From Escherichia phage SP27: a stretch of 64,000 nucleotides of DNA. Shown piece after piece: positions 7,273 through 53,999 of the stretch. The translations under genes and the position numbers were made by a program. The number at the start of each line of letters is the position of its first letter. The stretch's first letter is position 1. Below the pieces are notes generated by a model, which was not told the origin of the DNA, ran no database searches, and saw only the letters and a program-made list of their open reading frames with translations. The stretch lies in sequence record LC494302.1; one strand, written 5' to 3'.

Positions 7273-7914
7273 ATGACTAAGCAAGAAATATTCAAAACTT
7301 TAATTGACATTTTGCGTCCATCAAAAACTCGTTGTGCGATGGAGTTTGATATTCCTTATGCTGAACGCGTAATCTTTCCACAAGTTAAAGCTGCTGGACT
7401 TACTTTGCTTGGAATGGGGATGTACTCTGTAGTAGTTGAACATAAAAACTATCCTGGACGAGCATTTAAAGTAACCACTTCACGCTGGGATGGTTTTCGT
7501 GCTTATGCAAAGTACTGCATTGAAAACGCAGGAACCAAGTTTCTTCCAGTGATCTACAGTGCCAACGAACAAGGAAACTTTGGATGGTATGAGATGGACA
7601 AGTACTATCCTATAATTAAACAAAAAAATAATTATGATGACTTTGTTAGTACTAAAATTGGAGATTTATATTCTTATGCACATGCTGGTCAGTACGCTAC
7701 TTCAGTGAATGATATGCGTGGAAATTCTGAAGAGATTGCTATTGCGACGGTCGCTGCTAACATCATGAAAGAGTTTCACGGGCGTTTTGTACCAGACATT
7801 CATTCAAGTAATGTAATGATGGATAAAGATGGGAATGTATTCATTACTGATCCTCTTTCGTGTGATGTGCGTAGAGAAATACCAATTACTGAAGAAGATC
7901 CAGTTTTTTATTGA
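7273..7914 (+). CDS. putative protein-kinase-like protein
   Basis: GAGGA RBS before ATG 7273; glycine-loop-like GMGMYSVVV, AFKV lysine, catalytic-loop-like DIHSSNVMMDKDGNVFITD. Confidence 0.45.
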   Translation: MTKQEIFKTLIDILRPSKTRCAMEFDIPYAERVIFPQVKAAGLTLLGMGMYSVVVEHKNYPGRAFKVTTSRWDGFRAYAKYCIENAGTKFLPVIYSANEQGNFGWYEMDKYYPIIKQKNNYDDFVSTKIGDLYSYAHAGQYATSVNDMRGNSEEIAIATVAANIMKEFHGRFVPDIHSSNVMMDKDGNVFITDPLSCDVRREIPITEEDPVFY

Positions 7915-7975
7915 CAGAACTGATGTTCTGATGTATTCTTAATAAACCATAAAAATTGCGGTAAAGGATAAAATC

Positions 7976-8257
7976 ATGCGTTCATTTGAAAACTTAATAG
8001 GTAAGCATCTTTTATCTGAAATTGATGCAGACGTTAAAGAATTATCCAAATCAAAAAGTTACATTCATTTGGATGAACTATTTGTTAAGTACGGTGAGAT
8101 TGGTTTTAAGTCATTATTTGTTTTTACTATGAAAGTACATAGTTTAAAGTACTTCGATTTGAGTGCTAAAGATGGTGAACCGAATCTATATTACATGTAT
8201 TACCTTAAGAACAAAGATGAAGCTAATACATTACTCTCTGAATATATATTGGGGTAA
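7976..8257 (+). CDS. hypothetical protein
   Basis: AAGGA RBS; 93 aa. Confidence 0.55.
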   Translation: MRSFENLIGKHLLSEIDADVKELSKSKSYIHLDELFVKYGEIGFKSLFVFTMKVHSLKYFDLSAKDGEPNLYYMYYLKNKDEANTLLSEYILG

Positions 8258-8259
8258 AA

Positions 8260-8598
8260 ATGGAACAATATTTTGAATTAATAAACAAAGTATCATTTTA
8301 TGTAGTATCTTTGGTTTGGGTGTATTATATGTTTTGCTACATTATTGCATTCTTCCGATACACTACTTTATATGAACGTATCTACTATGATGCCCCAATT
8401 TCATTCTTGATGTTTTGTGCATGTACGTGGGGAATATTAGAAGTACTGATATGTGGGTATAGTACTGATGAATTAAATCTGGTATCGGTCTTGACTGGGT
8501 TTTCATTTGTTGTTATGATAGCTGCCGTTCCAGTATGGTTGTTCTTTGGACTAGTTCATCGCATTGATATATGGCGTTCTAATATCCCTGAAAAGTAA
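8260..8598 (+). CDS. small multi-TM membrane protein (family M)
   Basis: hydrophobic segments; C-terminal RSNIPEK motif shared with neighbours. Confidence 0.6.
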   Translation: MEQYFELINKVSFYVVSLVWVYYMFCYIIAFFRYTTLYERIYYDAPISFLMFCACTWGILEVLICGYSTDELNLVSVLTGFSFVVMIAAVPVWLFFGLVHRIDIWRSNIPEK

Positions 8599-8607
8599 GG
8601 ATTGGTA

Positions 8608-8949
8608 ATGATTTATTACACTAACATGTTTGCCTATGCTGTTGCTTGCATTTACATTGTTTACTTCTTATTTGGTGGAGTACTGTGCTTCTTTAAGTAC
8701 AAAACGTTGTTCAACCGAATGTACCCAAATCATCCAATTGTAGTTGTACTTTTGATTCTTTCAGTTTCTCAAATAATCGTTGAAACTACAATGGGTATCA
8801 GTAGTGTACATTATAGTTTTGGTACTATAGTAATTATTACTATGCTTATTGCATACATTTTAGTACTTGGATATGGTATCTTTGGTAATATTGGTATGAA
8901 AATGTATCATCGAATTAAAACATTACGTGATAATCTACCGGAGCGTTGA
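8608..8949 (+). CDS. small multi-TM membrane protein (family M)
   Basis: TAAGGA RBS before ATG 8608; C-terminal RDNLPER. Confidence 0.6.
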   Translation: MIYYTNMFAYAVACIYIVYFLFGGVLCFFKYKTLFNRMYPNHPIVVVLLILSVSQIIVETTMGISSVHYSFGTIVIITMLIAYILVLGYGIFGNIGMKMYHRIKTLRDNLPER

Positions 8950-8950
8950 T

Positions 8951-9295
8951 ATGTATAATTTGAACCTAATCTCATATATTATAACAACACTGTTTACATT
9001 CTATGCCTTTGTTGGTATAATCCTACTGTACTTTAAATTTTATAAAGTGTTTAACCGTTTCTATCCTTCAATGGAGAATGAGTTTTTCTTTGTGTTGTAC
9101 GTATGTTACACATTCATGGCTACATGTTTCACTGTAGTCGATGGTGTCATCGGCATTAAAACTGCTGCACCAAATGGTAGTACGCTGGTTGCATTTATTC
9201 TTACCGGATTCCTTGCAACTTATATTGCCTTCATTGCAACATGGTCAGTGGTTGAATTTCTCTTGCGACTACGAAAGAATATGCCGAATCGATAG
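8951..9295 (+). CDS. small multi-TM membrane protein (family M)
   Basis: GGAG before ATG 8951; C-terminal RKNMPNR. Confidence 0.6.
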   Translation: MYNLNLISYIITTLFTFYAFVGIILLYFKFYKVFNRFYPSMENEFFFVLYVCYTFMATCFTVVDGVIGIKTAAPNGSTLVAFILTGFLATYIAFIATWSVVEFLLRLRKNMPNR

Positions 9296-9304
9296 GAGAC
9301 ATAT

Positions 9305-9559
9305 ATGTTTGCATTGCGTAACAAAAACACTAAAGAAATATTATGTTTAGATACCGTATGGGATTGTGCGGGATCAACTACAGTTCTTGAAGAAGGAACT
9401 GGATATTGCGTGTTTGTTGTACATGATAGGAATGAACTCGAATTATTACTTGCTGAGTTCAATGCTGGTGGTAATCCTAACAGTACTGAATACCCTGAGA
9501 TTATCAATCCAGCACCACCAGGCTCTTATGAAATTCTACAACTGTGGGAGTTGAAGTAA
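9305..9559 (+). CDS. hypothetical protein
   Basis: AGGAG RBS; 84 aa. Confidence 0.55.
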   Translation: MFALRNKNTKEILCLDTVWDCAGSTTVLEEGTGYCVFVVHDRNELELLLAEFNAGGNPNSTEYPEIINPAPPGSYEILQLWELK

Positions 9560-9939
9560 TGCGTCAAATGCACAAAGTAACCGAGCTAAACAAGCGTCTG
9601 GTTAAACAATCAATGTTCGAGGATAAAGAGTCTTATTATAACTTTAAACGTGCAGTAGAGGCTGCTATCCACATTCAGAAGCTTAAAGAACGTGGTTGTA
9701 TTATTCTGGAAAATGGTTCGGAAGTTGTAACGGATGACTTTAGTGTAGCGTTTGATGTTTCACCTGACGGGACGCTATCAATGCCCCGCTTAGGAACTGG
9801 AAACATGACTGTTTGGGTTGGCTTCACTATGGGGAATGTACCTGGTACTGTGTACGTAGATGATGCGGAATTGAAAGACAGTTTCAAAAACTTATCGTAC
9901 CTTGAACCACAATACGCACATGAAATGAATTTATTTTGA
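9559..9939 (+). CDS. hypothetical protein
   Basis: GGGAG before ATG 9559, start overlaps upstream stop. Confidence 0.5.
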   Translation: MRQMHKVTELNKRLVKQSMFEDKESYYNFKRAVEAAIHIQKLKERGCIILENGSEVVTDDFSVAFDVSPDGTLSMPRLGTGNMTVWVGFTMGNVPGTVYVDDAELKDSFKNLSYLEPQYAHEMNLF

Positions 9940-9940
9940 G

Positions 9941-9998
9941 TTGACAAACACATTCAGTACTGTATAATGTTTATCAAGGGGATGAACTTCTCATCCCC
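9941..9998 (+). promoter_or_regulatory. PeSL-type cassette (sigma70-like promoter + leader stem-loop)
   Basis: TTGACA-17-TATAAT then hairpin AGGGGATGAACTTCTCATCCCC before gene 10016. Confidence 0.6.
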
Positions 9999-10015
9999 AC
10001 AATCGAGGAATTGTC

Positions 10016-10570
10016 ATGATTACTTTTAAGAAAACTGCTAACCACATCCATGAAATCTACATTAACGGTCACAAAGCTGGCCTTCTTCGTTTACTCGCCC
10101 ATCACCCTGATGCTACCGTATCTGATAATGAACCTAAAGATTGGCGTGTCTTTTTCTTTGGAAAGTACAGTGATTTTCAAGTATCAAACCTGAAGAACAT
10201 TCGTTCAGTATGCACGTTAACTGAAATTAAAGAAAAGTTAGCACAAGCATTGAAAACTAATCCAGATGGTGTTCTTCCACCTGATAACTTTGTAGAGAAA
10301 GGTTATGCCTTAGCTCATTTCAAAGATGGTACTATTCAATCTATCAGTACTGAATATGAATATCATTGGACTGAGTACTTCACTTATGGTTCGAGTAATA
10401 CATTGATGGATTCACGTAGTAAATTGGAAGAAGTACTGACTCGTATGAATGAACGCGAGCGTCAGTTATATGACAAACCAGAAATGTGGAGTTCAACTTA
10501 CATTGACCGTATTGACTATGTTATTATGACTCCAATCTTTGACACTGCTTACTATGATTCTTTGAAATAA
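10016..10570 (+). CDS. hypothetical protein
   Basis: preceded by PeSL-like promoter+hairpin and GAGGA RBS; 184 aa. Confidence 0.6.
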   Translation: MITFKKTANHIHEIYINGHKAGLLRLLAHHPDATVSDNEPKDWRVFFFGKYSDFQVSNLKNIRSVCTLTEIKEKLAQALKTNPDGVLPPDNFVEKGYALAHFKDGTIQSISTEYEYHWTEYFTYGSSNTLMDSRSKLEEVLTRMNERERQLYDKPEMWSSTYIDRIDYVIMTPIFDTAYYDSLK

Positions 10571-10581
10571 GGATAACTTAT

Positions 10582-10758
10582 ATGAAACTACGTACTCGTA
10601 ATCGACTGATGGATGCACTGTACCATGAACAGCTTTCACTGAATGAAGTGAAGCGTCAGTTAATGTACACATATCAGTTTCCCGCTCGCATTGCAAAACA
10701 ACGTGCTAAAGAATTGCTGAAAGAAGCAATAGAGTACTGGGAATCTGATTCGTACTAA
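10582..10758 (+). CDS. hypothetical small protein (59 aa)
   Basis: AAGGA RBS; ORF MKLRTRNRLMDALYHEQ... fills an otherwise empty gap; below track cutoff. Confidence 0.4.
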   Translation: MKLRTRNRLMDALYHEQLSLNEVKRQLMYTYQFPARIAKQRAKELLKEAIEYWESDSY

Positions 10759-10797
10759 TATTACGTGATATGTCACGTTAATTAAGTGAGGCGATAA

Positions 10798-11049
10798 ATG
10801 AAAATATTATTAGTTCTAATACTACTAATAGTTTTACCATTTACTTTAGTATCCCCTGGACTTGCATGGAATGTATTTGTGTACTTAGTATGTACTATTG
10901 TAGTAAATGGTATCTTGTTCTTAGTTCTATTCATAAATGGAATAGGACACGGTGGAGGATGGACCAGTACTGCTGATATCGTACATAAAACCACTATGTC
11001 TTTATTTGTAATGTGGAATTTGTTCTGGACTTGGTTTGTGTTCTTCTAA
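10798..11049 (+). CDS. hypothetical membrane protein
   Basis: GAGG RBS; strongly hydrophobic 83 aa. Confidence 0.55.
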   Translation: MKILLVLILLIVLPFTLVSPGLAWNVFVYLVCTIVVNGILFLVLFINGIGHGGGWTSTADIVHKTTMSLFVMWNLFWTWFVFF

Positions 11050-11057
11050 TTAAAAAT

Positions 11058-11429
11058 ATGAATATAGATTTGAAAGGTGCAACCCGAACTGTTATCCTCA
11101 TTGGGGAATACGCTATCAAGATTCCAACCTTCAAAAGCTGGAAGTTATTCCTAACTGGAATGATAGCTAACCTCAATGAACGTTCATGGATGCAGTACTC
11201 CAATCGTAGTGATAGTGGTATCTGCCCTACTTTGTGGTCATCATGTACAGGACTAGTAACTGTACAGAAACGTTGTAAGCCAGTTCAACATAGGGGTTTA
11301 TTTTGGGTGGAGTTGTGTGCTTTAGCATTGAATTCAGAGTTAAGTACTGACTTCTTTTATTCAGATGCGAAGCCAGAAAACTTTGGTTATCTGAATGGTA
11401 AGTTAGTTAAACTTGATTATGGAGATTAA
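11058..11429 (+). CDS. minimal protein-kinase-like protein
   Basis: internal ATG 11058 of track ORF; YAIKIP lysine motif, catalytic-loop-like DAKPENFGY, KLVKLDYG (DFG-like). Confidence 0.4.
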   Translation: MNIDLKGATRTVILIGEYAIKIPTFKSWKLFLTGMIANLNERSWMQYSNRSDSGICPTLWSSCTGLVTVQKRCKPVQHRGLFWVELCALALNSELSTDFFYSDAKPENFGYLNGKLVKLDYGD

Positions 11430-11430
11430 G

Positions 11431-11700
11431 ATGTACGCACTGTATAATAAAGAAAAGAAACGATTTGCTAAGGTTGAAATTTCGATTGATACCTTTGATA
11501 TGTTGGAGTACTGTATTGTGACGGACCTATATGCTAACTTGTATTACGTTCTTGATGACGTATCAGTACTGCAACGATTGCTTGAGAATTCCAAAAGTCA
11601 ATGCCAGGGCATCCATGATGGTTCATCTTATGAAACACCTGAGTGTTCCTACGGCTATCTGGACGGGTATGAGATTGTGAAGTTGGGGATTGTTGAATAA
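11431..11700 (+). CDS. hypothetical protein
   Basis: GGAG RBS before ATG 11431. Confidence 0.5.
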   Translation: MYALYNKEKKRFAKVEISIDTFDMLEYCIVTDLYANLYYVLDDVSVLQRLLENSKSQCQGIHDGSSYETPECSYGYLDGYEIVKLGIVE

Positions 11701-11702
11701 AG

Positions 11703-11731
11703 AAAAGGGTTGACTACGGTCAGCCCTTTTT
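11703..11731 (+). terminator. terminator/promoter module upstream of denV
   Basis: AAAGGGTTGACTACGGTCAGCCCTTTTTGCTATAAT. Confidence 0.65.
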
Positions 11732-11767
11732 GCTATAATCATTTCATCGAAACGAGAGGATGAATAC

Positions 11768-12283
11768 ATGACACGCATTAACTTAGTACACGTTAAAGAA
11801 CTTGCTGACCAACATCTGATGGCTGAATATCGTGAACTCCCACGTGTATTTGGTGCTGTACAAAAACACGTTCAAGCACGTAAGCGTGTACGTGATTTCA
11901 AAATTAACAGTACTTATCTGTTAGGTTCAGGTCATGTGACATTCTTTTACGACAAGTTGCTGTACTTACAGAAGCGTCATATCGATATTGTTAACGAATG
12001 TTTGCGTCGTGGTATGAAGATTCAAAACACTGAAGTAAACGACATTAGCGGCTTCCCTGCTGAGTTTTGTAATGACTACGTACCAACGGAGTCAGAGATT
12101 AAAATGTCTCGTGATCGTTTGATTGAGAAGCTCCAGATGAAGCCTACGTGGTATAAGTTTACTGATGTTGAATGTCCACAGTACGTTAAAGATATGCAGA
12201 ACGTAAGTAGTAAGAACGAATCTAGTACTGATATGTTCGACGAAATTGAAGAACAAATCAAAGATGAAATGAATAATTATTAA
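11768..12283 (+). CDS. denV: pyrimidine dimer DNA glycosylase / endonuclease V
   Basis: N-terminal 130 aa closely match T4 DenV as recalled ([45 protein letters not shown]); GAGG RBS; about 40 aa C-terminal extension. Confidence 0.9.
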
Positions 12284-12321
12284 AGGAAAGGGTTGACTTC
12301 GGTTACACAAAGGAACATAAC

Positions 12322-12516
12322 ATGTTATTAGTATATTCAACGCGTTTCTGGATTTCTTTTATTGTACTATCGCTAATCGGCTTCGGTTTGAGTATACTCT
12401 TTTCGTGGGATGAATTGGGTACATGGTATTATGAAGTCCCGTGGTACATGAAGATAGCTCCTTGTTATGCGGCATTGTTCGTGTCATTCCTTATTGTTGT
12501 CTTCAGCGAGGATTAG
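12322..12516 (+). CDS. hypothetical small membrane protein
   Basis: AAGGAA RBS; two hydrophobic segments. Confidence 0.5.
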   Translation: MLLVYSTRFWISFIVLSLIGFGLSILFSWDELGTWYYEVPWYMKIAPCYAALFVSFLIVVFSED

Positions 12517-12567
12517 TTGATGTAGTATGTGCTACACCAAAGTATTTGGATATTTTAGATATAAACA

Positions 12568-12596
12568 TTGACACCTGTTATATCTTTCTGTATTAT
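12568..12596 (+). promoter_or_regulatory. sigma70-like promoter
   Basis: TTGACA-17-TATTAT upstream of 12623. Confidence 0.5.
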
Positions 12597-12622
12597 GTAC
12601 ATCACCAAATGAGGAATACAAC

Positions 12623-12982
12623 ATGGCATCTTTAAGTGAAATCGCAGAATACAACCCACTAACAATCTCAACAATTCAACGTACAAAAACTTTTTATTTC
12701 CGTCCTGCTGATGGATGGAAACGTGGAATGAATGGTGACTATCGAGTACTGGAAGATTCACTAATCGAGCGTATCAACTCTGAACTACAGAAGTATGAAG
12801 GTGTTAAAGTTGTGCGTTCAACTTCTCGTTATTTTGAGTACTACATTGAGTCTTCAACTGTAAATGAAAACTCATCATTATCGGTGGACAACACTGATAT
12901 TCTTCGTAATGCAGTTGGTATGTTATGCAACATTGCAGAAGAAATGGGATTAACTATTAGTACTATGAGTGAGTTGGAATAA
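12623..12982 (+). CDS. hypothetical protein
   Basis: TTGACA/TATTAT promoter upstream; GAGGA RBS; 119 aa. Confidence 0.55.
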   Translation: MASLSEIAEYNPLTISTIQRTKTFYFRPADGWKRGMNGDYRVLEDSLIERINSELQKYEGVKVVRSTSRYFEYYIESSTVNENSSLSVDNTDILRNAVGMLCNIAEEMGLTISTMSELE

Positions 12983-12985
12983 CAT

Positions 12986-13013
12986 AAAGGGTTGACTTCG
13001 GTCAGCCCTTTTT
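12986..13013 (+). terminator. terminator/promoter module
   Basis: AAGGGTTGACTTCGGTCAGCCCTTTTTGCTATAAT. Confidence 0.65.
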
Positions 13014-13049
13014 GCTATAATTATTTCATCAACTGAAGAGGGTAAAGAA

Positions 13050-13820
13050 ATGACCAGAGAAGCACGCAGCATTCAAATTCAGAAAAACTTCAACTCCATG
13101 ATGGTTGCTCTTGAGTGTTTGCTCGATGATAGCAGTACTGTAAAAAGTATGGTTGTCAGTGGTGCTCCTGGTGTTGGTAAGACTTACACCTTGTCCCAAC
13201 GTCTCCAGAAGGCTCATGACGCAGCAGAATGGAACGTAGCTACTATCAGTGGTAAGATGACTACACTGGCTCTGTACGAAGTTCTGTACAAGAATCGTCA
13301 CAGCACCAACGTGTTAGTACTGGATGATATGGACAGCATCTTTGATTCTGAAGACGGTATGAACCTGCTCAAAGCTGTTTTGGATAGTGGTAAGCGTACT
13401 GTATCTTATATGACTAGCTCTAAGTACTTGAGCACTAACGGCATTCCTAATAGCTTTGATTTTAATGGTCGCATCGTATTCATTACTAACAAAGATTTAG
13501 CGTTAGATGCTAAAGCTAAAACTAAAATGTCTGCTCATTATGCTGCTCTTATGTCTCGTTCTGTGTACGTGGATTTACAGATTCAGACTAAAAGTGATAT
13601 CATGATTCATATTGAAAATGTAATGACTAAGACTAATATCCTTGCATCTAAAGGTGTTAACAGTAACGGTAGTAAAGCAATTCTGAACTGGATGTTAAAA
13701 CATGAAGATAATCTTCGTGCACCATCCCTGCGTATGCCTTTGTTGATTTCAGCAGTATATAACAACAATCCGTATGATTGGGAAGAACAATGTGAAAACT
13801 TGTTCCTTGAGAAAATCTAA
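13050..13820 (+). CDS. P-loop NTPase (AAA-like ATPase)
   Basis: Walker A GAPGVGKT and Walker B-like VLVLDDMD; AGAGGG RBS. Confidence 0.6.
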   Translation: MTREARSIQIQKNFNSMMVALECLLDDSSTVKSMVVSGAPGVGKTYTLSQRLQKAHDAAEWNVATISGKMTTLALYEVLYKNRHSTNVLVLDDMDSIFDSEDGMNLLKAVLDSGKRTVSYMTSSKYLSTNGIPNSFDFNGRIVFITNKDLALDAKAKTKMSAHYAALMSRSVYVDLQIQTKSDIMIHIENVMTKTNILASKGVNSNGSKAILNWMLKHEDNLRAPSLRMPLLISAVYNNNPYDWEEQCENLFLEKI

Positions 13821-13829
13821 TTACATATG

Positions 13830-13858
13830 TTGACAGTACTACCATAGTGTAGTACTAT
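13830..13858 (+). promoter_or_regulatory. sigma70-like promoter with AGTACT palindrome in spacer
   Basis: TTGACA-17-TACTAT; AGTACTACCATAGTGTAGTACT inverted repeat; upstream of membrane array. Confidence 0.5.
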
Positions 13859-13887
13859 AACTTAATATTCACCACCGGAGATACGAT

Positions 13888-46981: not shown

Positions 46982-46984
46982 AAA

Positions 46985-47534: not shown

Positions 47535-47548
47535 TATAAAAAAATAGT

Positions 47549-47608
47549 TTGACAATAGATTATAGTACTGTATAATGTTTTACATGAAGGGGAGAATAGT
47601 TCTCCCCA
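47549..47608 (+). promoter_or_regulatory. PeSL cassette
   Basis: TTGACA-16-TATAAT + hairpin GGGGAGAATAGTTCTCCCC. Confidence 0.65.
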
Positions 47609-47627
47609 CTAACAGAGAGAAAACAAA

Positions 47628-47840
47628 ATGGCTAATATCCGGTCGAAATTAAAAAATGCAAAACAAGTTTTATTTTCAGATCATGAATACTTTAATAAAG
47701 ATATTACAGGAGTTACAAGTATCAAGGAAGTAAAAGAAAAAACCGGCGTTTTGTGTGATGTGCGATTAGTTGGAACATTTGGGAATAACGTGCTATATCG
47801 CTGCGGTGATTACAATTTTACACTGACTATCATTAACTAA
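47628..47840 (+). CDS. hypothetical protein
   Basis: PeSL + GAGAGAAA RBS; 70 aa. Confidence 0.6.
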   Translation: MANIRSKLKNAKQVLFSDHEYFNKDITGVTSIKEVKEKTGVLCDVRLVGTFGNNVLYRCGDYNFTLTIIN

Positions 47841-47861
47841 AAATATTATCACAGTACTATC

Positions 47862-47897
47862 AAAGCTATTGACAATGATTGATAGTACTGGCATAAT
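47862..47897 (+). promoter_or_regulatory. palindromic-operator promoter
   Basis: AGTACTATCAAAGCTATTGACAATGATTGATAGTACT + CATAAT. Confidence 0.55.
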
Positions 47898-47932
47898 AAC
47901 TTTTATCAACTACACTACTAAGGAATTAAAAA

Positions 47933-48112
47933 ATGGCTATCATCGCAAAAACTGAAATCGTTGGTCTGGATTCTATCATCATGACGTTTGAAGATCAAAA
48001 AGGTATGTATGTAGTTTCCTATGGTGATTATGTTCGGGAGTATGAAACGGTAGACGAAGCCTTTGAAAGTTATATTCGCCAGGTGAATAAAGCATACGAC
48101 GACTACCGCTAA
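47933..48112 (+). CDS. hypothetical small protein (59 aa)
   Basis: palindromic promoter + AAGGAA RBS; below track cutoff. Confidence 0.45.
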   Translation: MAIIAKTEIVGLDSIIMTFEDQKGMYVVSYGDYVREYETVDEAFESYIRQVNKAYDDYR

Positions 48113-48130
48113 AATATATTACCAGTACTA

Positions 48131-48167
48131 TTAAATCTATTGACAATGTTTGATAGTACTGTATAAT
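48131..48167 (+). promoter_or_regulatory. palindromic-operator promoter
   Basis: AGTACTATTAAATCTATTGACAATGTTTGATAGTACT + TATAAT. Confidence 0.55.
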
Positions 48168-48211
48168 AAGTTTTATAAACAGTAGTTAACTTAACCTAAG
48201 AGAGAAATAAA

Positions 48212-48355
48212 ATGATCGCACTGGATTCATTCATCGACGCAGTACTGGCAAAAACTGGCGAGGATCTGACCGCAGAACAATACGCGATGATCGAACAATG
48301 TCAACAGGACGGTAAATCGGTGAAAGATACTGTTAAGATTATCCGCAAGATGTAA
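48212..48355 (+). CDS. hypothetical small protein (47 aa)
   Basis: palindromic promoter + AGAGAGAAA RBS; followed by hairpin terminator. Confidence 0.45.
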   Translation: MIALDSFIDAVLAKTGEDLTAEQYAMIEQCQQDGKSVKDTVKIIRKM

Positions 48356-48360
48356 GATTA

Positions 48361-48392
48361 TAGCCCACTGGTTAACGCTGGTGGGCTTTAAT
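48361..48392 (+). terminator. rho-independent terminator
   Basis: AGCCCACTGG..GCTGGTGGGCT + TTT. Confidence 0.55.
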
Positions 48393-48460
48393 TCATCACC
48401 CTATACAATGCCAGTACTCAACCGTTTATCTCGTTAGAATGCGTTACAGGACGTTTAACA

Positions 48461-48658
48461 ATGATTAGCATGAAATCAGTACAAAAACAAATAGAAACAT
48501 TATCAAAAATTAAACGTAAACAGTACTCCTTAGAATATACAATCAATGGTAACTATCATCTAATGAAAGAGAATAATTTTATAGTCATTGATGAATCATT
48601 GCAAATCATTAGTATAGTACTGAAAGCATTAATCAATGACAGAAAAAAATTAAAATAA
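48461..48658 (+). CDS. hypothetical protein
   Basis: track ORF 65 aa; no convincing RBS. Confidence 0.35.
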   Translation: MISMKSVQKQIETLSKIKRKQYSLEYTINGNYHLMKENNFIVIDESLQIISIVLKALINDRKKLK

Positions 48659-48662
48659 TCTA

Positions 48663-48691
48663 TTGACAATATCATCCAGTACTGGCATAAT
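48663..48691 (+). promoter_or_regulatory. sigma70-like promoter
   Basis: TTGACA-17-CATAAT, leader box downstream. Confidence 0.45.
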
Positions 48692-48717
48692 ACTTACACC
48701 AAGACGAGAACGTCACT

Positions 48718-48746
48718 AACCCATAGGGTGCACAAATGTAACTGTA
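48718..48746 (+). promoter_or_regulatory. conserved leader box
   Basis: AACCCATAGGGTGCACAAATGTAACTG + TATAAT. Confidence 0.4.
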
Positions 48747-48749
48747 TAA

Positions 48750-48800
48750 TATTGATCAAAAAATGATCTGATCAATACTTGATCAATTTGCGTAAAGTAG
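48750..48800. other. GATC/TGATCA cluster in 330-bp ORF-free spacer
   Basis: TTGATCAAAAAATGATCTGATCAATACTTGATCAA: 4 GATC within about 40 bp. Confidence 0.4.
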
Positions 48801-48989
48801 TATAATTCTATGCAGTTGGTTAGACGAAAGGTTATGATTAGTAGTGCAAGTGTATAAAAATTTTCATGGTGTATCGTTCCGCACATATGGGGATGAATAT
48901 GTGGTATCATGTGGATTGGAAAAAGTAAGAACAAGTAATATTATTGTCGCATTACAGTACTATAGTATTTTTATAATGAGGTTAAAATA

Positions 48990-49247
48990 ATGGCTGTAGG
49001 ATTCGCGAAAGATGGGGCCGAACAAGACGAGATTAACGCAGTGATTCAGGCTGCCGTTAACCACGCTAGAAAGCAAATTAACGCACAAATAGAATCACTG
49101 ATACATTGCCTCGACTGCGGCGATATAATCCCTGAGAAACGACGCCAGGCCGTTAAGGGATGTAAGTACTGCATAACTTGCCAGGAGGATCATGATAGTA
49201 CTTTTAAACGTCCCCCGCGTAATTGTTGGCATAGATCTATGAGATAA
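48990..49247 (+). CDS. TraR/DksA-family C4 zinc-finger protein
   Basis: CLDCGDIIPEKRRQAV..CKYCITCQ matches the C4 finger pattern of TraR/DksA; GAGG RBS. Confidence 0.65.
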   Translation: MAVGFAKDGAEQDEINAVIQAAVNHARKQINAQIESLIHCLDCGDIIPEKRRQAVKGCKYCITCQEDHDSTFKRPPRNCWHRSMR

Positions 49248-49252
49248 AAAGT

Positions 49253-49281
49253 ATTGACAGTACTGAAAGATAGTTTATAAT
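49253..49281 (+). promoter_or_regulatory. sigma70-like promoter
   Basis: TTGACA-17-TATAAT upstream of GNAT-like gene. Confidence 0.55.
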
Positions 49282-49310
49282 ATTTTATATCTTAACTGAG
49301 GATTGAAATC

Positions 49311-49667
49311 ATGGGAATACAACATATCACGCGTACTACTGACAATGGCGAGATCACTGGCTATCAAGTACAGGGCAAAGTAGCACAATTGCAGTACTGG
49401 TTTGTTAAACGTGGAATCATTGCACCGGATCTTGATTATGACCGTGTAGCGTTTATTGATTCTCTTTATGTTGATCCTGATAGTCGGGGCAATGGTGAAG
49501 GTAACGAATTAATGAATGCCTTTATTGATGCCGCCGATGATTCAGATTGTATCATCTTAGAATGCGATACGGGAGAAGATAACGCCTTTAATCTTAAAGA
49601 ATGGTACGAAGGTTTCGGATTCGAGGTATTGATAGATAGTGAATATCCTATCATGATTTTATCATAG
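49311..49667 (+). CDS. GNAT-family acetyltransferase-like protein
   Basis: TTGACA/TATAAT promoter, GAGGA RBS; motif A-like RGNGEGNELM and motif B-like WYEGFGF. Confidence 0.55.
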   Translation: MGIQHITRTTDNGEITGYQVQGKVAQLQYWFVKRGIIAPDLDYDRVAFIDSLYVDPDSRGNGEGNELMNAFIDAADDSDCIILECDTGEDNAFNLKEWYEGFGFEVLIDSEYPIMILS

Positions 49668-49668
49668 T

Positions 49669-49728
49669 ACTTGCATTTAGTTTTCAGTACTGTTATAGTA
49701 CTTACATCAAGGGGAAACATCTTCCCCT
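49669..49728 (+). promoter_or_regulatory. PeSL-like cassette (degenerate -10)
   Basis: TTGCAT.. + hairpin AGGGGAAACATCTTCCCCT. Confidence 0.45.
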
Positions 49729-49745
49729 ACTAAGAGGAAATGAAA

Positions 49746-49934
49746 ATGGAAAACTTATCAAGTATTTTAGTACAAGATGATTTCGGTAATCCTGGAAGTG
49801 CTATCATTGTTCGGGGCAATAAAGCAACGTTTGTTATTGCTGGTGGACCCGTACAGCGTAGCATTAAAAATAATGCTGTTACCATTAATAATGTACGCTA
49901 TCGCTTAGATAAAGAATTAATTCATAAACTGTAA
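49746..49934 (+). CDS. hypothetical protein
   Basis: PeSL-like hairpin + GAGGA RBS 7 nt before ATG 49746. Confidence 0.5.
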   Translation: MENLSSILVQDDFGNPGSAIIVRGNKATFVIAGGPVQRSIKNNAVTINNVRYRLDKELIHKL

Positions 49935-49961
49935 TATTAATTTAATAGAGGATAACAATAA

Positions 49962-50285
49962 ATGTACATTCATACTACTATCACAAAGGAAGTCCGTTGC
50001 CAGTTCGAAAGTATTCCGGGCGTATGTTTCATCACTGGTACGTTTTCCCCTGGTGATCGTGATAATCCAGTACTGTTACAATTACGCCATCCATCATGGG
50101 ATAAAGCATTTGATCTACCGTTGAATGAATTCGCAACTACTGCTGAAAAGTACATTAAAAATATTCGCGAGAATGATCGACTATTCATTAATGCTTTTAG
50201 TGATTCCGCGTTAAGCGAGATCCACGGCGTATTGGTTGCAATCATGGAATCAATGCAGAAAACTAAATTCAAACAAGGTGAATAA
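49962..50285 (+). CDS. hypothetical protein
   Basis: AGAGGA RBS; 107 aa. Confidence 0.55.
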   Translation: MYIHTTITKEVRCQFESIPGVCFITGTFSPGDRDNPVLLQLRHPSWDKAFDLPLNEFATTAEKYIKNIRENDRLFINAFSDSALSEIHGVLVAIMESMQKTKFKQGE

Positions 50286-50291
50286 AAACTA

Positions 50292-50352
50292 TTGACAATA
50301 GATTATAGTACTGTATAATAAGTTACATGAAGGGGAGAAATGATTCTCCCCA
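50292..50352 (+). promoter_or_regulatory. PeSL cassette
   Basis: TTGACA-17-TATAAT + hairpin GGGGAGAAATGATTCTCCCC. Confidence 0.65.
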
Positions 50353-50368
50353 CTGAGAGGAAAGAAAA

Positions 50369-50581
50369 ATGCAAGGTCAACTAATCGTTCGTAAATGGTC
50401 TGATACTAACGAAAAACCGTGGGATGTACAATACATCGGACCGGATGGGGTATCACGTTATCAGCCTGGCGTAACGCATAGTACTGAGCAATATGCCGCC
50501 GCTCACCGCGAACGCCTGTTAGAATCCATGAAACAGGGATTCTGTGAAAAATTCATTCAAGATCATTGGCTGAAAGATTAA
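50369..50581 (+). CDS. hypothetical protein
   Basis: PeSL + GAGAGGAAA RBS; 70 aa. Confidence 0.6.
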   Translation: MQGQLIVRKWSDTNEKPWDVQYIGPDGVSRYQPGVTHSTEQYAAAHRERLLESMKQGFCEKFIQDHWLKD

Positions 50582-50598
50582 TAGAAGGAGTACAGCTT

Positions 50599-50691
50599 AT
50601 GCAAATGAATCCGATGATTATTGTTTTAGCTGTACTTATGATCATTCATGCAATTGTAGAAGTATTAACGCAATCAGGAGTAATAAAATGA
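50599..50691 (+). CDS. possible tiny hydrophobic peptide (30 aa)
   Basis: AAGGAG RBS; MQMNPMIIVLAVLMIIHAIVEVL... Confidence 0.35.
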   Translation: MQMNPMIIVLAVLMIIHAIVEVLTQSGVIK

Positions 50692-50861
50692 TTCAAGTAG
50701 AATTATCAGTACTGAAAGATCTGTTTTATCGGTTAGGTACTACTGGAGAGTATCCTAAAAGTGATACCGCAAAACTTTTTGTATCACTCGATTTATGGCA
50801 ACGCGAACAATTAGTAATGTCCTGGCGTAAAGGTAAAGCAGATAGCGAGGTGAAAGCATGA
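50688..50861 (+). CDS. hypothetical small protein (57 aa)
   Basis: ATGA overlap with upstream stop; GGAG nearby. Confidence 0.4.
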   Translation: MIQVELSVLKDLFYRLGTTGEYPKSDTAKLFVSLDLWQREQLVMSWRKGKADSEVKA

Positions 50862-51007
50862 AAGAATTCTTATTCGAAGTAGTGTTTCAAGGTGTCGGTA
50901 GTAATCAATTGATTCGCTCAAGTGGTTACAATGTTAACCAGGCATGGAATAACATTAAACAAATGTACCCGAACGCTATCACATATCGCAACCCAAAAGA
51001 AGTTTAA
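50858..51007 (+). CDS. hypothetical small protein (49 aa)
   Basis: ATGA overlap; followed by terminator. Confidence 0.4.
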   Translation: MKEFLFEVVFQGVGSNQLIRSSGYNVNQAWNNIKQMYPNAITYRNPKEV

Positions 51008-51016
51008 AAATAATTG

Positions 51017-51048
51017 AAAAAGGGATTGACTCCGGTCAGTCCCTTTGC
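51017..51048 (+). terminator. terminator/promoter module (GGGATTGACTCCGGTCAGTCCC type)
   Basis: AAAAAGGGATTGACTCCGGTCAGTCCCTTTGCTATTATAT. Confidence 0.65.
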
Positions 51049-51061
51049 TATTATATACGCA

Positions 51062-51092
51062 TAGAAACAAATCAGCCCACCGGGTGCATAAA
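51062..51092 (+). promoter_or_regulatory. conserved leader box
   Basis: AGCCCACCGGGTGCATAAATGTATCTATTG. Confidence 0.4.
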
Positions 51093-51145
51093 TGTATCTA
51101 TTGTTTGCTGGTGGCTAGTACTGAAAACTATTTTTAAAAAAGTAC

Positions 51146-51292
51146 TTGCATTGTACTTAGAATCAAGTATAATGTTTTACATCAGGACGGGGAACGAAAC
51201 AAGTAACCCCGTTAAGTAGTCCAGGAGTAAGACATACGAAAAACTCCCCTGATAAAATAGTTTGACAATAGAAAGTAAACGAGTATAATACT
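51146..51292 (+). promoter_or_regulatory. dual-promoter cassette with structured leader (copy 2)
   Basis: about 90% identical to 40170..40320 with compensatory changes in the hairpin (CGGGG..CCCCG). Confidence 0.55.
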
Positions 51293-51322
51293 TACATCAA
51301 CCACTGATAAGGAAACATAAAA

Positions 51323-51598
51323 ATGCGGATTCTACTGACAGCTAACGAAATCGAACAAGTACTGACTACTAACCTGGAAGACTGGAAACGTGAAGCAGAT
51401 ATCCAGGCGGTTCAATGGTTAAATGATAAGTTAACGCCGGATGACTTAAGCAAGATTGTAGATCCTCAATTCTACGAAGATATCCACGACACCGCGTTAA
51501 GCGTCGAGGATGTACTAGATAAGCACTTTATTGATACTGATTTGCAGGTTTACGGTCGTAAAAACTTTATCACTATTCACGACATTTACAATAATTAA
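51323..51598 (+). CDS. hypothetical acidic protein
   Basis: duplicated dual-promoter cassette upstream; AAGGAAA RBS. Confidence 0.6.
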   Translation: MRILLTANEIEQVLTTNLEDWKREADIQAVQWLNDKLTPDDLSKIVDPQFYEDIHDTALSVEDVLDKHFIDTDLQVYGRKNFITIHDIYNN

Positions 51599-51601
51599 GT
51601 A

Positions 51602-51665
51602 TTGACAAAGTATCTTAGTACTGTATAATAGTTTACATCGAGTGAGGGGAAACGGTTCCCCTCCT
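51602..51665 (+). promoter_or_regulatory. PeSL cassette
   Basis: TTGACA-16-TATAAT + hairpin GAGGGGAAACGGTTCCCCTC. Confidence 0.65.
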
Positions 51666-51686
51666 AACAAAGAGAGAGAAATAAAA

Positions 51687-51869
51687 ATGGCTAAGTGCAC
51701 TATCTGCAAGAAAGAAATAGTATTAGTTCCAAGTGCCCGTGAACGTGCCGCTCGGTTCGGTGGCAAAGCGTCAGACTATACAAAAATGTTTACTGCCCAT
51801 ACAGCTTGCCAGGTAGCAAAACGTTCACAAGAAAGCGTAGAATTAATGCGTAAACTTTCCAAAAAATAA
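51687..51869 (+). CDS. hypothetical small Cys-containing protein
   Basis: PeSL + AGAGAGA RBS before ATG 51687; CTICKK...HTAC. Confidence 0.55.
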   Translation: MAKCTICKKEIVLVPSARERAARFGGKASDYTKMFTAHTACQVAKRSQESVELMRKLSKK

Positions 51870-51872
51870 GTA

Positions 51873-51937
51873 TTGACAAAGTATCTTAGTACTGTATAAT
51901 AGTTTACATCAAGTGAGGGGAATGGTTCCCCTCCTAA
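51873..51937 (+). promoter_or_regulatory. PeSL cassette (near-duplicate of 51602)
   Basis: same promoter, hairpin GAGGGGAATGGTTCCCCTC. Confidence 0.65.
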
Positions 51938-51956
51938 CTAAAAGAGAGAAATAAAA

Positions 51957-52280
51957 ATGGCTATGATCCTTGCCCAGAAAGTAGAATTGAAAATTGTAAC
52001 CTCCTTTGACATTAACGTTAATCGGTGGACTGATTCACACGGCAATACTTACCACTCTTGCTACGTGTCTGCGTTAATTGGCGACCGCTGGGAAGACCTG
52101 GGACACGAAACCTTTACATACGGTTACGGTACACAAGGCGAATACACGGGCTTGGAGATCATTAAAGAAACCGTTATAGGTTTCAACCCGAAAGAAAAAG
52201 TTATTCACCGCATCGAGGAAGAGATCAACAAAGAAATAACAGTTCGCTACCACGATGTAAAACGTAAGAAAGACATGTAA
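51957..52280 (+). CDS. hypothetical protein, family B (paralog of 45074..45418)
   Basis: PeSL + AGAGAGA RBS. Confidence 0.6.
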   Translation: MAMILAQKVELKIVTSFDINVNRWTDSHGNTYHSCYVSALIGDRWEDLGHETFTYGYGTQGEYTGLEIIKETVIGFNPKEKVIHRIEEEINKEITVRYHDVKRKKDM

Positions 52281-52292
52281 TAGAATCCATTT

Positions 52293-52331
52293 AAAGTACT
52301 ATTTGACATTGCCCAGATAGTACTTTATAAT
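52293..52331 (+). promoter_or_regulatory. palindromic-operator promoter
   Basis: AGTACTATTTGACATTGCCCAGATAGTACT + TATAAT. Confidence 0.55.
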
Positions 52332-52375
52332 AGACTCTAACTTGTAGTACTAACTCAACTAATAGGATGTATACC

Positions 52376-52771
52376 ATGATTACTAAATTCTACGCTACCC
52401 GTGAAGCTGCCCGTATTGTTGCACGCGAGGAAGGCGAAACATTTAAAGACATGGGCAAAGATGCACCGAAAGGTCAACGCTGGGCCGTACAGTTCAAAGA
52501 GATCTCTGATATTGTGAATTCACCGGAGCCAGTACTAACAGCAGCAGAACTAAAACGAGCGGATTTACTGGCGTCAATACTTGATGCACAAGATGAGTTT
52601 ATCGCTGATTCTGATATCAAAGTACAGACAAACCACACCGCTTGGACTCACGCGGATCACCTGGCAAACCTTAAGCGTCCAAGTGAACTGATTCGCAACC
52701 AGAAAGAGATCCGACACGACCGTAAGGGTAATCGTGTAACAGTATACAGTAAACGCCGCCAGGTTATCTAA
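52376..52771 (+). CDS. hypothetical protein, family A (paralog of 39335..39601)
   Basis: palindromic promoter; AGGA 8 nt before ATG 52376. Confidence 0.6.
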   Translation: MITKFYATREAARIVAREEGETFKDMGKDAPKGQRWAVQFKEISDIVNSPEPVLTAAELKRADLLASILDAQDEFIADSDIKVQTNHTAWTHADHLANLKRPSELIRNQKEIRHDRKGNRVTVYSKRRQVI

Positions 52772-52792
52772 TAACTTGCAGTACTAACAACA

Positions 52793-52820
52793 CGGCGGGA
52801 TCAGTTCCCGCCTTTTTTAT
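52793..52820 (+). terminator. rho-independent terminator
   Basis: GGCGGGATCAGTTCCCGCC + TTTTTTAT. Confidence 0.65.
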
Positions 52821-52832
52821 AGGACAAACAAA

Positions 52833-53087
52833 ATGATTAAGGTTCAACTATATAAAGATAACATCTTACGGGTACACTATAAAGCACCTCAGAGAATCAT
52901 CACAAAGGCCGTACAGCTTGCAAATGAGTTTATTAATGGTAACCTATTACCTAGGAAGTTAAGCAACGGGAAACTGCGTGTAATCGACGTGGACACTAAC
53001 AACAGGATAGTAATCGAGAACACAGGAAAGATAAACCTTTATGAGCATCAACAATACAATAAGAAAATAAAACTAATATCACGTTGA
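52833..53087 (+). CDS. hypothetical protein
   Basis: terminator hairpin then AGGA RBS; 84 aa. Confidence 0.55.
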   Translation: MIKVQLYKDNILRVHYKAPQRIITKAVQLANEFINGNLLPRKLSNGKLRVIDVDTNNRIVIENTGKINLYEHQQYNKKIKLISR

Positions 53088-53140
53088 CAGTACTCAAATG
53101 TTTTAGTACTATATGTACATACCAACACGGGGGAAACAAA

Positions 53141-53383
53141 ATGATTACTTTAGAAAAACGTATCAAAGAAACTACATCGCTGGTGGAACTGTTAACAGTA
53201 CTCAAATGTAAAACAACACCATTCAGCACGCCGGACTTTATTAATATGGTTGATGTTAATGGTCGCTATCGTATCACGGTCGAACAAGGAGCGGCGAAAG
53301 TATTCAGTACTAAAAACACGAAGGAAGTGATCCACGCCGTTAATGTTAAAAAAGTAGTTGCCATTGATAGTAAAGTACTGTAA
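53141..53383 (+). CDS. hypothetical protein
   Basis: GGGGGA RBS before ATG 53141. Confidence 0.5.
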   Translation: MITLEKRIKETTSLVELLTVLKCKTTPFSTPDFINMVDVNGRYRITVEQGAAKVFSTKNTKEVIHAVNVKKVVAIDSKVL

Positions 53384-53414
53384 GATAGTTACATTAACTC
53401 AAGGAGAACATGCA

Positions 53415-53999
53415 ATGCGTAATTATACTAAATTCATCCGTACACTGTCAGAAATGGAAACCAACAAAGAGATCCTTTCAGCTTGTCGGTTAGCTGGCCT
53501 GGAGATCATCGGTGCTGGTTCTTCCCGTATAGTTTTCGCTTTAAATGATCGGTTAGTGATTAAGGTCGCGAATTGTGATGCGGGTGTAGAACAAAATGAA
53601 ACTGAATGTAAGGTATGGAATTTTTTAGACTATGACCGCCCTCAGTTGAAACAGTACTTTGCAAAGGTGCATATGCATTTATGCGATCCTGATAATATGT
53701 TTATCGTTATGGATCGGTTGAGTACTGCAAGTAAAGGCAGTGTGAAGCACGTAAACGCGTGCAATGAATTAAAGTACAATATTAAACGTAATGCAATCGA
53801 CCGCCAGCACCGCTTTGCTGATGCACTACAACACGTTGATGATACATTATCAACACTAACGATAAGAGATATCAGAAAACAGAATATCGGCCAGGATCGT
53901 AATGGACTTATTAAAGTACTTGATTACGGTTTAACCAGCAATATCTGGAATCAGTACTATAAAAAGCGTGATGTGGCAGCAAGTAAGGTAACACGATAA
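53415..53999 (+). CDS. putative protein-kinase-like protein
   Basis: AAGGAG RBS before ATG 53415; glycine-loop IGAGSSRIVF, VIKVA lysine, catalytic-loop-like IRDIRKQNIG, VLDYG (DFG-like). Confidence 0.5.
   Translation: MRNYTKFIRTLSEMETNKEILSACRLAGLEIIGAGSSRIVFALNDRLVIKVANCDAGVEQNETECKVWNFLDYDRPQLKQYFAKVHMHLCDPDNMFIVMDRLSTASKGSVKHVNACNELKYNIKRNAIDRQHRFADALQHVDDTLSTLTIRDIRKQNIGQDRNGLIKVLDYGLTSNIWNQYYKKRDVAASKVTR

Follow-up and report, generated by a model that had tools for sequence, protein, structure and literature searches.

Escherichia phage SP27 (sequence record LC494302.1) carries, within a stretch of 64,000 nucleotides that we call the window, three complete open reading frames (ORFs) on the plus strand whose products resemble small protein kinases. 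We named them K1 (7273-7914, 213 amino acids), K2 (11058-11429, 123 amino acids) and K3 (53415-53999, 194 amino acids). The window has a G+C content of 36%, and its genes, almost all on the plus strand, are short ORFs that are mostly of unknown function. Positions 7000-12000 are 98-99% identical to the Asteriusvirus Escherichia jumbo phages vB_EcoM_CRJP21, G17, 121Q, PBECO4 and Sharanji, and positions 52500-55000 match Asteriusvirus jumbo phages at the same level. K1 and K2 coincide with the coding sequences (CDSs) G17_00108 and G17_00098 of the near-identical phage G17, and K3 with a 585-nucleotide CDS annotated in phages ph0011, Turkey3 and Sharanji. The source is likely an Asteriusvirus-type E. 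coli jumbo phage that encodes three stand-alone proteins of the protein-kinase fold drawn from two families. The three genes and their motifs are placed as follows:

7273..7914, plus strand: K1, kinase domain of the T7 gp0.7 (T7K) family, 213 amino acids (PHROG 15752, BLASTP to T7 gp0.7, G17 annotation)
7411..7428, plus strand: K1 glycine-rich loop GMGMYS, residues 47-52, aligned with LGNGHFS of T7K
7795..7860, plus strand: K1 catalytic loop DIHSSN, residues 175-180, and DFG-equivalent TDPLS, residues 192-196 (T7K alignment)
11058..11429, plus strand: K2, minimal kinase-like core and member of PHROG 4301, 123 amino acids
11073..11126, plus strand: K2 Gly-loop G7-A-T9-R10 and beta-3 lysine K21 (136-member alignment)
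11166..11180, plus strand: K2 helix-C motif A-N38-L-N-E41, residues 37-41 (AlphaFold model, 136-member alignment)
11364..11423, plus strand: K2 catalytic loop D103-A-K105-P-E-N108 and D120-Y-G122 (136-member alignment)
53415..53999, plus strand: K3, kinase-like protein of PHROG 4301, 194 amino acids (PHROG 4301, PDB profile matches, ortholog annotations)
53511..53606, plus strand: K3 Gly-loop GAGSSR, residues 33-38, beta-3 lysine K50 and helix-C motif QNETE (34-homolog alignment)
53868..53930, plus strand: K3 catalytic loop DIRKQN, residues 152-157, and DYG, residues 170-172 (34-homolog alignment, PDB profile search)

The initial annotation had described these ORFs as three small kinase-like proteins on the strength of short motifs, and every motif it quoted is present at coordinates that are those of annotated CDSs. 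Independent evidence bears out the kinase-like reading of K1, K2 and K3. The lysine motif is AFKV in K1 (residues 64-67), AIKIP in K2 (19-23) and VIKVA in K3 (48-52); K2 further shows KGATR (6-10), DAKPEN (103-108) and DYG (120-122), and the QNETE of K3 (60-64) includes E64. The putative catalytic constellation is K66, D175, N180 and D193 in K1, K21, E41, D103, N108 and D120 in K2, and K50, E64, D152, N157 and D170 in K3, the helix-C glutamate being placed in K2 and K3 only. A regular expression requiring the lysine motif, then D-x4-N, then D-[YFP]-[GL] matched exactly K1, K2 and K3 among the 271 six-frame ORFs of at least 50 amino acids and gave no match in 200 shuffles of the ORFs; as it was devised post hoc from the three proteins themselves, it is a weak test. 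Conservation is the stronger one, since the motif residues are the invariant or near-invariant positions in the homolog alignments. Hidden Markov model (HMM) searches of all window ORFs with the family profiles revealed no fourth paralog. Past the DFG-type motif there remain 18 residues in K1, 22 in K3 and one in K2, so that the C-terminal lobe (C-lobe) of a kinase, from the activation segment to helix F and onward, is missing from all three.

What is new here is the K2 family, whose members have about 120 residues and terminate at the DFG motif; K1 and K3 were already known or suspected as kinases. K2 is annotated as 'hypothetical protein' in all Asteriusvirus records and matches PHROG 4301 with an E value of 7.2e-44. 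It consists of an N-terminal lobe (N-lobe), one long helix, the catalytic loop and the DFG motif, and ends one residue past D-Y-G. The initial annotation had been wary of a kinase of 123 amino acids; that worry falls away, as the whole family is of such length (110-135 amino acids in nearly all clusters) and ends at the DFG motif. The first 15 homologs collected have 118-127 amino acids, apart from a fragment of 102 (P0019), and all end in LDYG plus one residue. A profile search of 1.84 billion representative proteins returned 1,206 clusters (defined at 50% identity) at E <= 1e-3, of which 639 reached E <= 1e-10. Among the best 150 cluster matches, 135 are 105-140 amino acids long, and 107 of 136 aligned members stop 0-1 residue past the glycine of the DFG-type motif. 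As read from these sequences, truncation at DFG is a conserved architectural trait of the family and not damage. So strict a stop suggests that the exposed face, which helix F usually covers, matters: it might give access to substrates, allow self-association or dock on a host protein.

Residue conservation within the family follows the expected active site. The ATP/Mg triad K21, E41 and D120 is invariant (136/136), G7, R10, P23, G34, N38 and G110 are each kept in 134 members and G65 in 131, and conservation remains strong down to 30% identity. Position 103 is acidic in 135 of 136 sequences (Asp in 90, Glu in 45), K105 is retained in 118, and position 108 is Asn in 94 and Ser in 41. The catalytic loop comes in two co-varying forms, D-x-K-x-x-N (72 members) and E-x-K-x-x-S (39), with a handful of mixed ones. 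The second form, in which a longer acid goes with a shorter residue on the metal side, resembles a compensated change of the active site, and because mixed forms are so few, this co-variation is what would be expected of a working rather than a decayed site. PHROG 4301 was matched by all 136 sampled relatives, Pfam by none (0/136 for Pkinase), and neither Pfam nor NCBIfam holds a model that covers the family. As for the gene itself, K2 starts 8 nucleotides past the stop of the upstream ORF, in a stretch of A and T only, and has no obvious Shine-Dalgarno sequence upstream; clear ones precede K1 (AGAGGA) and K3 (AAGGAGA). Starting from an in-frame GTG at 11013 would lengthen K2 by 15 residues, but the N-termini of the homologs favour the ATG at 11058.

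Two lines of evidence connect K2 to the kinase fold. By sequence profile, K2 and K3 are distant paralogs within one phage-specific family, PHROG 4301. A first hhalign comparison of shallow K2 and K3 alignments was unconvincing (probability 12%); with deep alignments the probability reached 97.7% (E 2e-12), and the Gly-loop, lysine, glutamate, catalytic loop and DYG all fell in register. The K2-family HMM also picks out K3 among the window ORFs (E 5.9e-7). The second line is the AlphaFold model of K2, which has a predicted local distance difference test score (pLDDT) of 96 and a predicted template modelling score of 0.86. It runs through three strands with K21 on the third, a long helix bearing E41, two strands, a long helix, a short helix, two strands and DYG, which in the model is the kinase order b1-b3, aC, b4-b5, aE-like, b7-b8 and DFG. 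The prediction thus contains what defines the protein-kinase-like fold, a five-stranded N-lobe sheet with helix C followed by a catalytic loop and a DFG strand-turn. In a Foldseek search of the PDB, its top matches were kinases, among them Lpg2603, TTK, WbdD, CK2 and Rio2, and the model superposes on JAK, BRAF and PknB. Against viral models (BFVD), Foldseek returned phage proteins of 117-210 amino acids, including a 'Protein kinase domain-containing protein' of Ralstonia phage RP12 (E 7e-10), two proteins of CBB and RaK2 H6X4G3, which is as long as K3.

Longer relatives of K2 (P0138, P0167, P0172, P0144 and others) were inspected as possible domain fusions and hold no recognisable extra domains. 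One further match, P0049 (1,073 amino acids, E 2.5e-26 to the K2 profile), was discarded as a false positive, consisting of about 16 near-identical repeats of about 66 residues that look like a translated tandem DNA repeat. In Kosakonia phage Kc263, gp027 (1441-2244 of contig L012), a protein of 267 amino acids annotated as PknA, carries a K2-like core (35% identity, E 6e-20) with the catalytic loop E-H-V-P-K-N and 128 additional C-terminal residues that have no Pfam match. Given this lack of a match and the divergent catalytic loop, we rejected it as a bridge to canonical kinases; it may be a fused or degenerate relative of K2.

K1 belongs to a better-known group. The whole protein is covered by a match to PHROG 15752 ('protein kinase; inhibitor of host transcription...'; E 4.7e-92), and it matches T7 gp0.7 by BLASTP (E 6e-9, 27% identity over 164 amino acids) through the catalytic loop and the DFG-equivalent. 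The paired motifs, K1 before T7K, are LGMGMYS/LGNGHFS, AFKV/VIKV, DIHSSN/DMHSGN and ITDPLS/ITDPVS. A tblastn search with K1 matched 773 phage records, the majority of them gp0.7 in T7-like phages, and its ortholog in G17 is annotated 'putative protein kinase, PHA00451'. A 2026 Nature paper (PMC13645617) describes T7K as a hyper-promiscuous Ser/Thr/Tyr kinase that phosphorylates most of the proteome without preference for a sequence motif and disarms defence systems. According to the same paper, the LGNGHFS of T7K contains G76, the residue mutated in kinase-dead T7; its DFG-equivalent is DPV (residues 213-215), to which the authors attribute its hyperactivity; and the next residue, S216, is a site of inhibitory autophosphorylation (PMC13645617). 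In jumbophage homologues the valine of DPV is less conserved, and the serine is conserved in all variants (PMC13645617); K1, with T-D-P-L-S, has both a DPV-type motif and the serine. T7K is directed to nucleic-acid-binding proteins by a C-terminal shut-off domain that binds DNA; the G17 jumbophage homologues listed in that paper, whose role it leaves open, have lost this domain (PMC13645617). K1 likewise lacks it and stops at residue 213, 18 residues past DPL. This domain is a feature of the Autographiviridae architecture and not of the kinase domain: residues 1-242 of T7K alone are active in vitro (PMC13645617), so that a phage kinase domain ending about 27 residues past the DFG-equivalent is a proven enzyme. 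From its sequence K1 is a T7K-family member minus the shut-off domain, already annotated and published as such, and by analogy with T7K it is likely an active phosphotransferase.

K3 matches PHROG 4301, which has no functional label, with an E value of 2.4e-41. Compared with K2 it has an N-terminal helical extension, a longer inter-lobe linker and a tail of 22 residues past D-Y-G. Its homologs, 13 at first and later 38, came from jumbo-phage-like contigs, and its relatives are confined to RaK2-like jumbo phages. In a 34-sequence alignment S36, R38, K50, Q60, E64, G159, D170 and G172 are invariant and D152 nearly so. The K3 family profile matched MKK4 in the PDB (E 8.2e-6), followed by MKK6, PAK5/7 and STK24, the best matches listed being protein kinases aligned from the Gly-loop through the DFG motif; a 12-sequence profile aligned to MKK7 over the same span. 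In the MKK4 alignment the tail of K3 pairs with the beginning of the activation segment (DFGISGQLVDSIAKTR) and goes no further. K3 also weakly matches the PD-T4-6 models in PADLOC (E 9e-4), the Pfam, NCBIfam and PADLOC scans otherwise yielding only a sub-threshold kinase match for K3 and nothing for K1 or K2. Earlier records had flagged it: the ortholog in ph0011 is annotated 'protein kinase domain-containing protein', those in Turkey3, Turkey5 and others 'serine/threonine-protein kinase' or 'putative protein kinase', and 'another protein kinase' in the paper on Sharanji is WNN14351.1, the K3 ortholog. K3 is, as judged by profile matches and conserved residues, a divergent Hanks-type kinase-like protein that a few records and one paper had noted before. 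We lean towards its being an active phosphotransferase, with less assurance than for K1.

Several findings weigh against reading the three proteins as working kinases. None of K1, K2 and K3 reaches the Pfam Pkinase (PF00069) gathering score of 31.7 bits: K3 scores 16.9 bits (E 0.0044), only 10 of its 34 relatives match Pkinase at all and each of these below threshold, and K1 and K2 give no match. The AlphaFold model of K3 (12 sequences) has a pLDDT of 47 overall and is good for the N-lobe only. The fold of the second half of K3 is a putative assignment drawn from sequence. N157 of K3 varies among its homologs, and K105 is substituted in 18 of 136 K2 family members. Against PDB sequences, neither K2 as a single sequence nor a 14-sequence profile gave matches, and the best E value of the 136-sequence profile was 0.11, which is not significant; the kinase assignment of K2 therefore relies on the predicted structure and on the transitive profile link through K3. 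The 22 best matches of that profile were nonetheless all TTK, with 'vdakpenFGylngrlvkiDYg' lying on 'sDLKPaNFlivdGmLkliDFG'. In all characterised active kinases helix F anchors both hydrophobic spines, and K2 has no helix F; no active kinase is known whose chain stops at DFG. In some relatives, among them Salmonella phage SD-2_S15 and CMSTMSU, K2 is truncated or split and hence dispensable there. Literature searches found no activity data for K1, K2, K3 or any PHROG 4301 protein. Taking both sides together, whether K2 is an active phosphotransferase is a nearly balanced question that tips slightly towards no. That the family as a whole is active without any C-lobe past DFG, and is the smallest functional member of the protein-kinase superfamily, is a possibility we regard as rather doubtful.

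We infer catalysis, substrates, timing and role from homology, conservation, architecture and, for K2, fold, and consider the resulting functional picture probable overall. K1, K2 and K3 would be made early by the host RNA polymerase from sigma-70-type promoters. With the Gly-rich loop, the beta-3 lysine, the helix-C glutamate, the catalytic loop and the DFG-type aspartate kept, they would bind ATP-Mg and transfer phosphate. Their substrates would be proteins of the host and perhaps of the phage, reached, as in T7K, by an open active site that is hardly selective for sequence, and the outcome would be to help take over the host or to disarm defence systems. By analogy, low-specificity protein phosphorylation early in infection is the most likely activity, our confidence falling from K1 to K3 to K2. 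The promiscuity of T7K may itself be tied to its missing C-lobe. An active K2 could be a very open promiscuous kinase that many unrelated phages direct against host functions or defences, or else a half-enzyme completed by a second copy or a host protein.

The closest competitor to this proposal holds that K2, and possibly K3, bind ATP without being protein kinases on their own, and act as ATPases, nucleotide-binding regulators, pseudokinase-like scaffolds or partner-dependent half-enzymes; in the last case a host protein or a second copy would cover the face usually packed on helix F. In K2 only the ATP/Mg triad is strictly invariant and the catalytic-loop residues vary, and the stop at the DFG-type glycine in 107 of 136 members could mean that an open C-terminal face is selected. 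Among the structural matches of K2 are OspG and HopBF1; OspG is reportedly activated by E2~ubiquitin, and HopBF1 engages HSP90. In addition, UbiB/COQ8-type kinase-like proteins are reported to act as ATPases. Yet an acidic residue at position 103 in 135 of 136 members, K105 in 118 and the co-varying loops fit phosphotransfer better than binding alone, and none of eight genomic contexts offered a conserved neighbouring partner gene, though a host protein might still take that part. We consider ATP binding without autonomous kinase activity unlikely. It is less likely still, to the point of being improbable, that K2 and K3 phosphorylate something other than protein: an RNA, as Ark1/ArkI does, a small molecule or antibiotic, as APH does, or a nucleotide-type immune signal. 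The lobe that binds protein substrates is indeed absent, the structural neighbours include APH enzymes and Ark1, and a distance of 1.5 kb separates one homolog from a Tad2-like anti-Thoeris gene. However, small-molecule kinases of this superfamily bind their substrate with a helical C-terminal subdomain, which is likewise missing in K2 and K3, and both the D-x-K-P-E-N loop and the matches (TTK for K2; MAP2K, PAK and STK24 for K3) are of the Ser/Thr protein-kinase type. A search for tRNA genes in the window found none, and the contexts of the K2 homologs showed no conserved metabolic neighbourhood.

K2 could also be imagined as the truncated remnant, or pseudogene, of a longer kinase gene, the likeness of the three motif sets being partly coincidence: it is a protein of 123 amino acids with a stop right after DYG and no obvious Shine-Dalgarno sequence, and longer relatives such as the 267-residue Kc263 gp027 exist. 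The lengths and DFG-terminal stops shared across the family, the residue conservation down to 30% identity, the compact high-confidence model and the absence of the ordered motif set from shuffled ORFs all speak to the contrary, and on sequence grounds the family-wide architecture effectively refutes this explanation.

Promiscuous phosphorylation by K1-K3, the proposal we prefer, draws on T7K as a functional model, and the three proteins can be placed beside several known systems. K1 shares with T7K the Gly-loop, the VxK lysine, the DxHSxN loop and TDP[VL]S, including the serine that is autophosphorylated in T7K; the T7K kinase domain (1-242, with DPV at 213-215) also ends soon after its DFG-equivalent. 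K1 differs in lacking the DNA-binding shut-off domain and in having Leu for Val in DPV, and K2 and K3 are further removed, giving no match to PHROG 15752 (BLASTP of K1 against K3, E 0.028). With Hanks-type kinases (PF00069/PF07714) the likeness lies in the order and identity of the motifs, from Gly-loop through VAIK lysine, helix-C glutamate and D-x-K-x-x-N to DFG. In contrast to them, K1-K3 lack the activation segment, the APE motif and helices F-I, score below the Pfam thresholds and, in K2 and K3, replace GxGxxG by a G-x-[TS]-R signature (R10 in K2, R38 in K3). We therefore do not file them as canonical Pkinase members, as they fail the Pfam threshold and have no C-lobe; they are protein-kinase-like by sequence and fold. 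The structures of HopBF1, OspG/NleH, Rio, Bud32 and Ark1 retain helical C-lobe elements after the DFG-equivalent, whereas K2 retains none after DFG, and the matched chains of HopBF1, OspG/NleH, Rio1/2, Bud32 and Ark1/ArkI have 169-269 residues, K2 being 50-150 residues shorter. Pfam and PDB profile searches detected no sequence-level relationship between K2 and the HopBF1/OspG, Rio, Bud32 or Ark1 families, and K2 shows neither the sequence nor the effector context (secretion signal, host-client mimicry) of HopBF1/OspG members. Our analysis assigns PHROG 4301 to the kinase fold and adds to it the architecture that ends at DFG as well as the D-K-N and E-K-S variants of the active site. We found no description of a K2 family with DFG termination in Pfam, NCBIfam, the PHROG labels or the searchable literature, whose coverage is incomplete.

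The early timing in our proposal comes from a conserved intergenic element of which the window holds 11 copies, all on the plus strand, with 0 expected by chance (positions 1358, 4601, 4784, 6127, 7212, 11707, 12989, 46988, 51023, 54015 and 56271). Its parts are, in order, the hairpin GGGTTGACTtCGGTCAGCC, a T-run and GCTATAAT with TATAAT; a -35 box, TTGACT, lies in the 5' arm of the hairpin and stands 17-18 nucleotides before the -10 box. Three copies flank the kinase-like genes:

7212..7244, plus strand: hairpin-promoter element before K1, GGGTTGACTTCGGTCAGCC, T-run and TATGAT, with the -35 TTGACT in the hairpin and the -10 box 18 nucleotides on
11707..11739, plus strand: element copy closing the predicted transcription unit from K1 to K2
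54015..54046, plus strand: element copy immediately after K3

No gene separates K1 from the copy at 7212 upstream of it; the copy at 11707 directly follows K2 and one further ORF, and that at 54015 directly follows K3. The hairpin resembles a terminator, which is the only part of the element annotated in G17. With the -35 box inside the 5' arm of a terminator-like hairpin, a single stretch of 35 bases could both terminate a transcript and initiate the following one. This arrangement suggests early transcription by the host RNA polymerase, with K1 and K2 in one unit. Against it stands a generic promoter scan of the window, which was not above chance; only the repeated element is. For K3 there is a further hint from relatives: in vB_Ec-M-J and fENko-Kae01 its region lies under annotated direct terminal repeats, so that K3 occurs twice per record. 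Because of this position K3 probably belongs to the DNA that enters the cell first.

K2 relatives are found in 119 isolated phages of very different kinds and are nearly all annotated as hypothetical. Their carriers include Asteriusvirus, jumbo phages of Aeromonas, Erwinia and Klebsiella, the T4-like phages JS10, IME341 and G4507, phi G17, Skure and PaMx11-like siphoviruses; four records, those of pEa_SNUABM_5, Kc263, AH04 and PAKlein3, name the relative a Ser/Thr kinase. In metagenomic and prophage contigs the gene occupies unrelated positions. In Salmonella lambdoid prophage contigs (L005 and L006, 6001-6372) the homologs lie between Rz and the terminase gene Nu1. On another contig (L015, 5001-5357) a homolog directly follows the lysozyme gene, upstream of terminase. 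One lies inside a siphovirus head-tail module, another upstream of terminase, one in an accessory region (that near the Tad2-like gene), and others are among nrd genes or in a syntenic denV region. The slot between lysis cassette and terminase in lambdoid and P22-like prophages is a classic 'moron' slot, and homologs located there could, in temperate phages, be expressed late or in the lysogen, in contrast to the jumbo phage, where the setting looks early. No neighbour was shared across the eight genomic contexts of K2 homologs that we compared, and the flanking genes of four distant homologs were mutually unrelated. From these contexts K2 is a stand-alone, 'moron'-like accessory gene with no conserved phage-encoded partner. 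We had considered a C-lobe supplied in trans by the ORF at 11431-11700, at the end of K2, or by another neighbour, and rejected it since no neighbour is conserved and the flanks are unrelated.

The window thus represents a phage with a T7K homologue plus two further stripped-down kinase-like genes. The initial annotation had thought three kinases in one window striking; all three are there, but their co-occurrence is less unusual than it seemed, as K1 and K3 were already recorded as kinases and related jumbo phages carry several PHROG 4301 paralogs. The K2 family is widespread: its clusters, about 1,200 in number, span jumbo phages, T4-like phages, siphoviruses and lambdoid prophages, in which the accessory gene mostly stands alone. 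Should K2 be active, it would define a minimal kinase-fold active site of about 120 residues with nothing past DFG, and would bear on kinase evolution, enzyme design and the real contribution of helix F and the C-lobe. Host manipulation by phage phosphorylation might then far exceed what current annotation suggests, because PHROGs label the family 'unknown function' and Pfam and NCBIfam lack it. Should K2 be inactive, the family would still be a large set of conserved ATP-binding mini-domains in need of a function.

Two minor observations concern the surroundings of K2 and K3. Just upstream of K2, the ORF at 10798-11049 (plus strand) encodes 83 amino acids, nearly all of them hydrophobic (MKILLVLILLIVLPF...WTWFVFF), and its product is probably a small membrane protein. 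Short hydrophobic ORFs likewise stand beside K2 homologs upstream on contig L009 and downstream on contig L011, with no homology among them. Downstream of K3, about 195 bp at approximately 54792-54986 of the window are 86-87% identical to hypothetical-protein genes of unrelated E. coli myoviruses with genomes of about 131-140 kb (EduardKellenberger, ECP26, S127 BCL3 and SophiaRose), which suggests a small gene exchanged between phage families.

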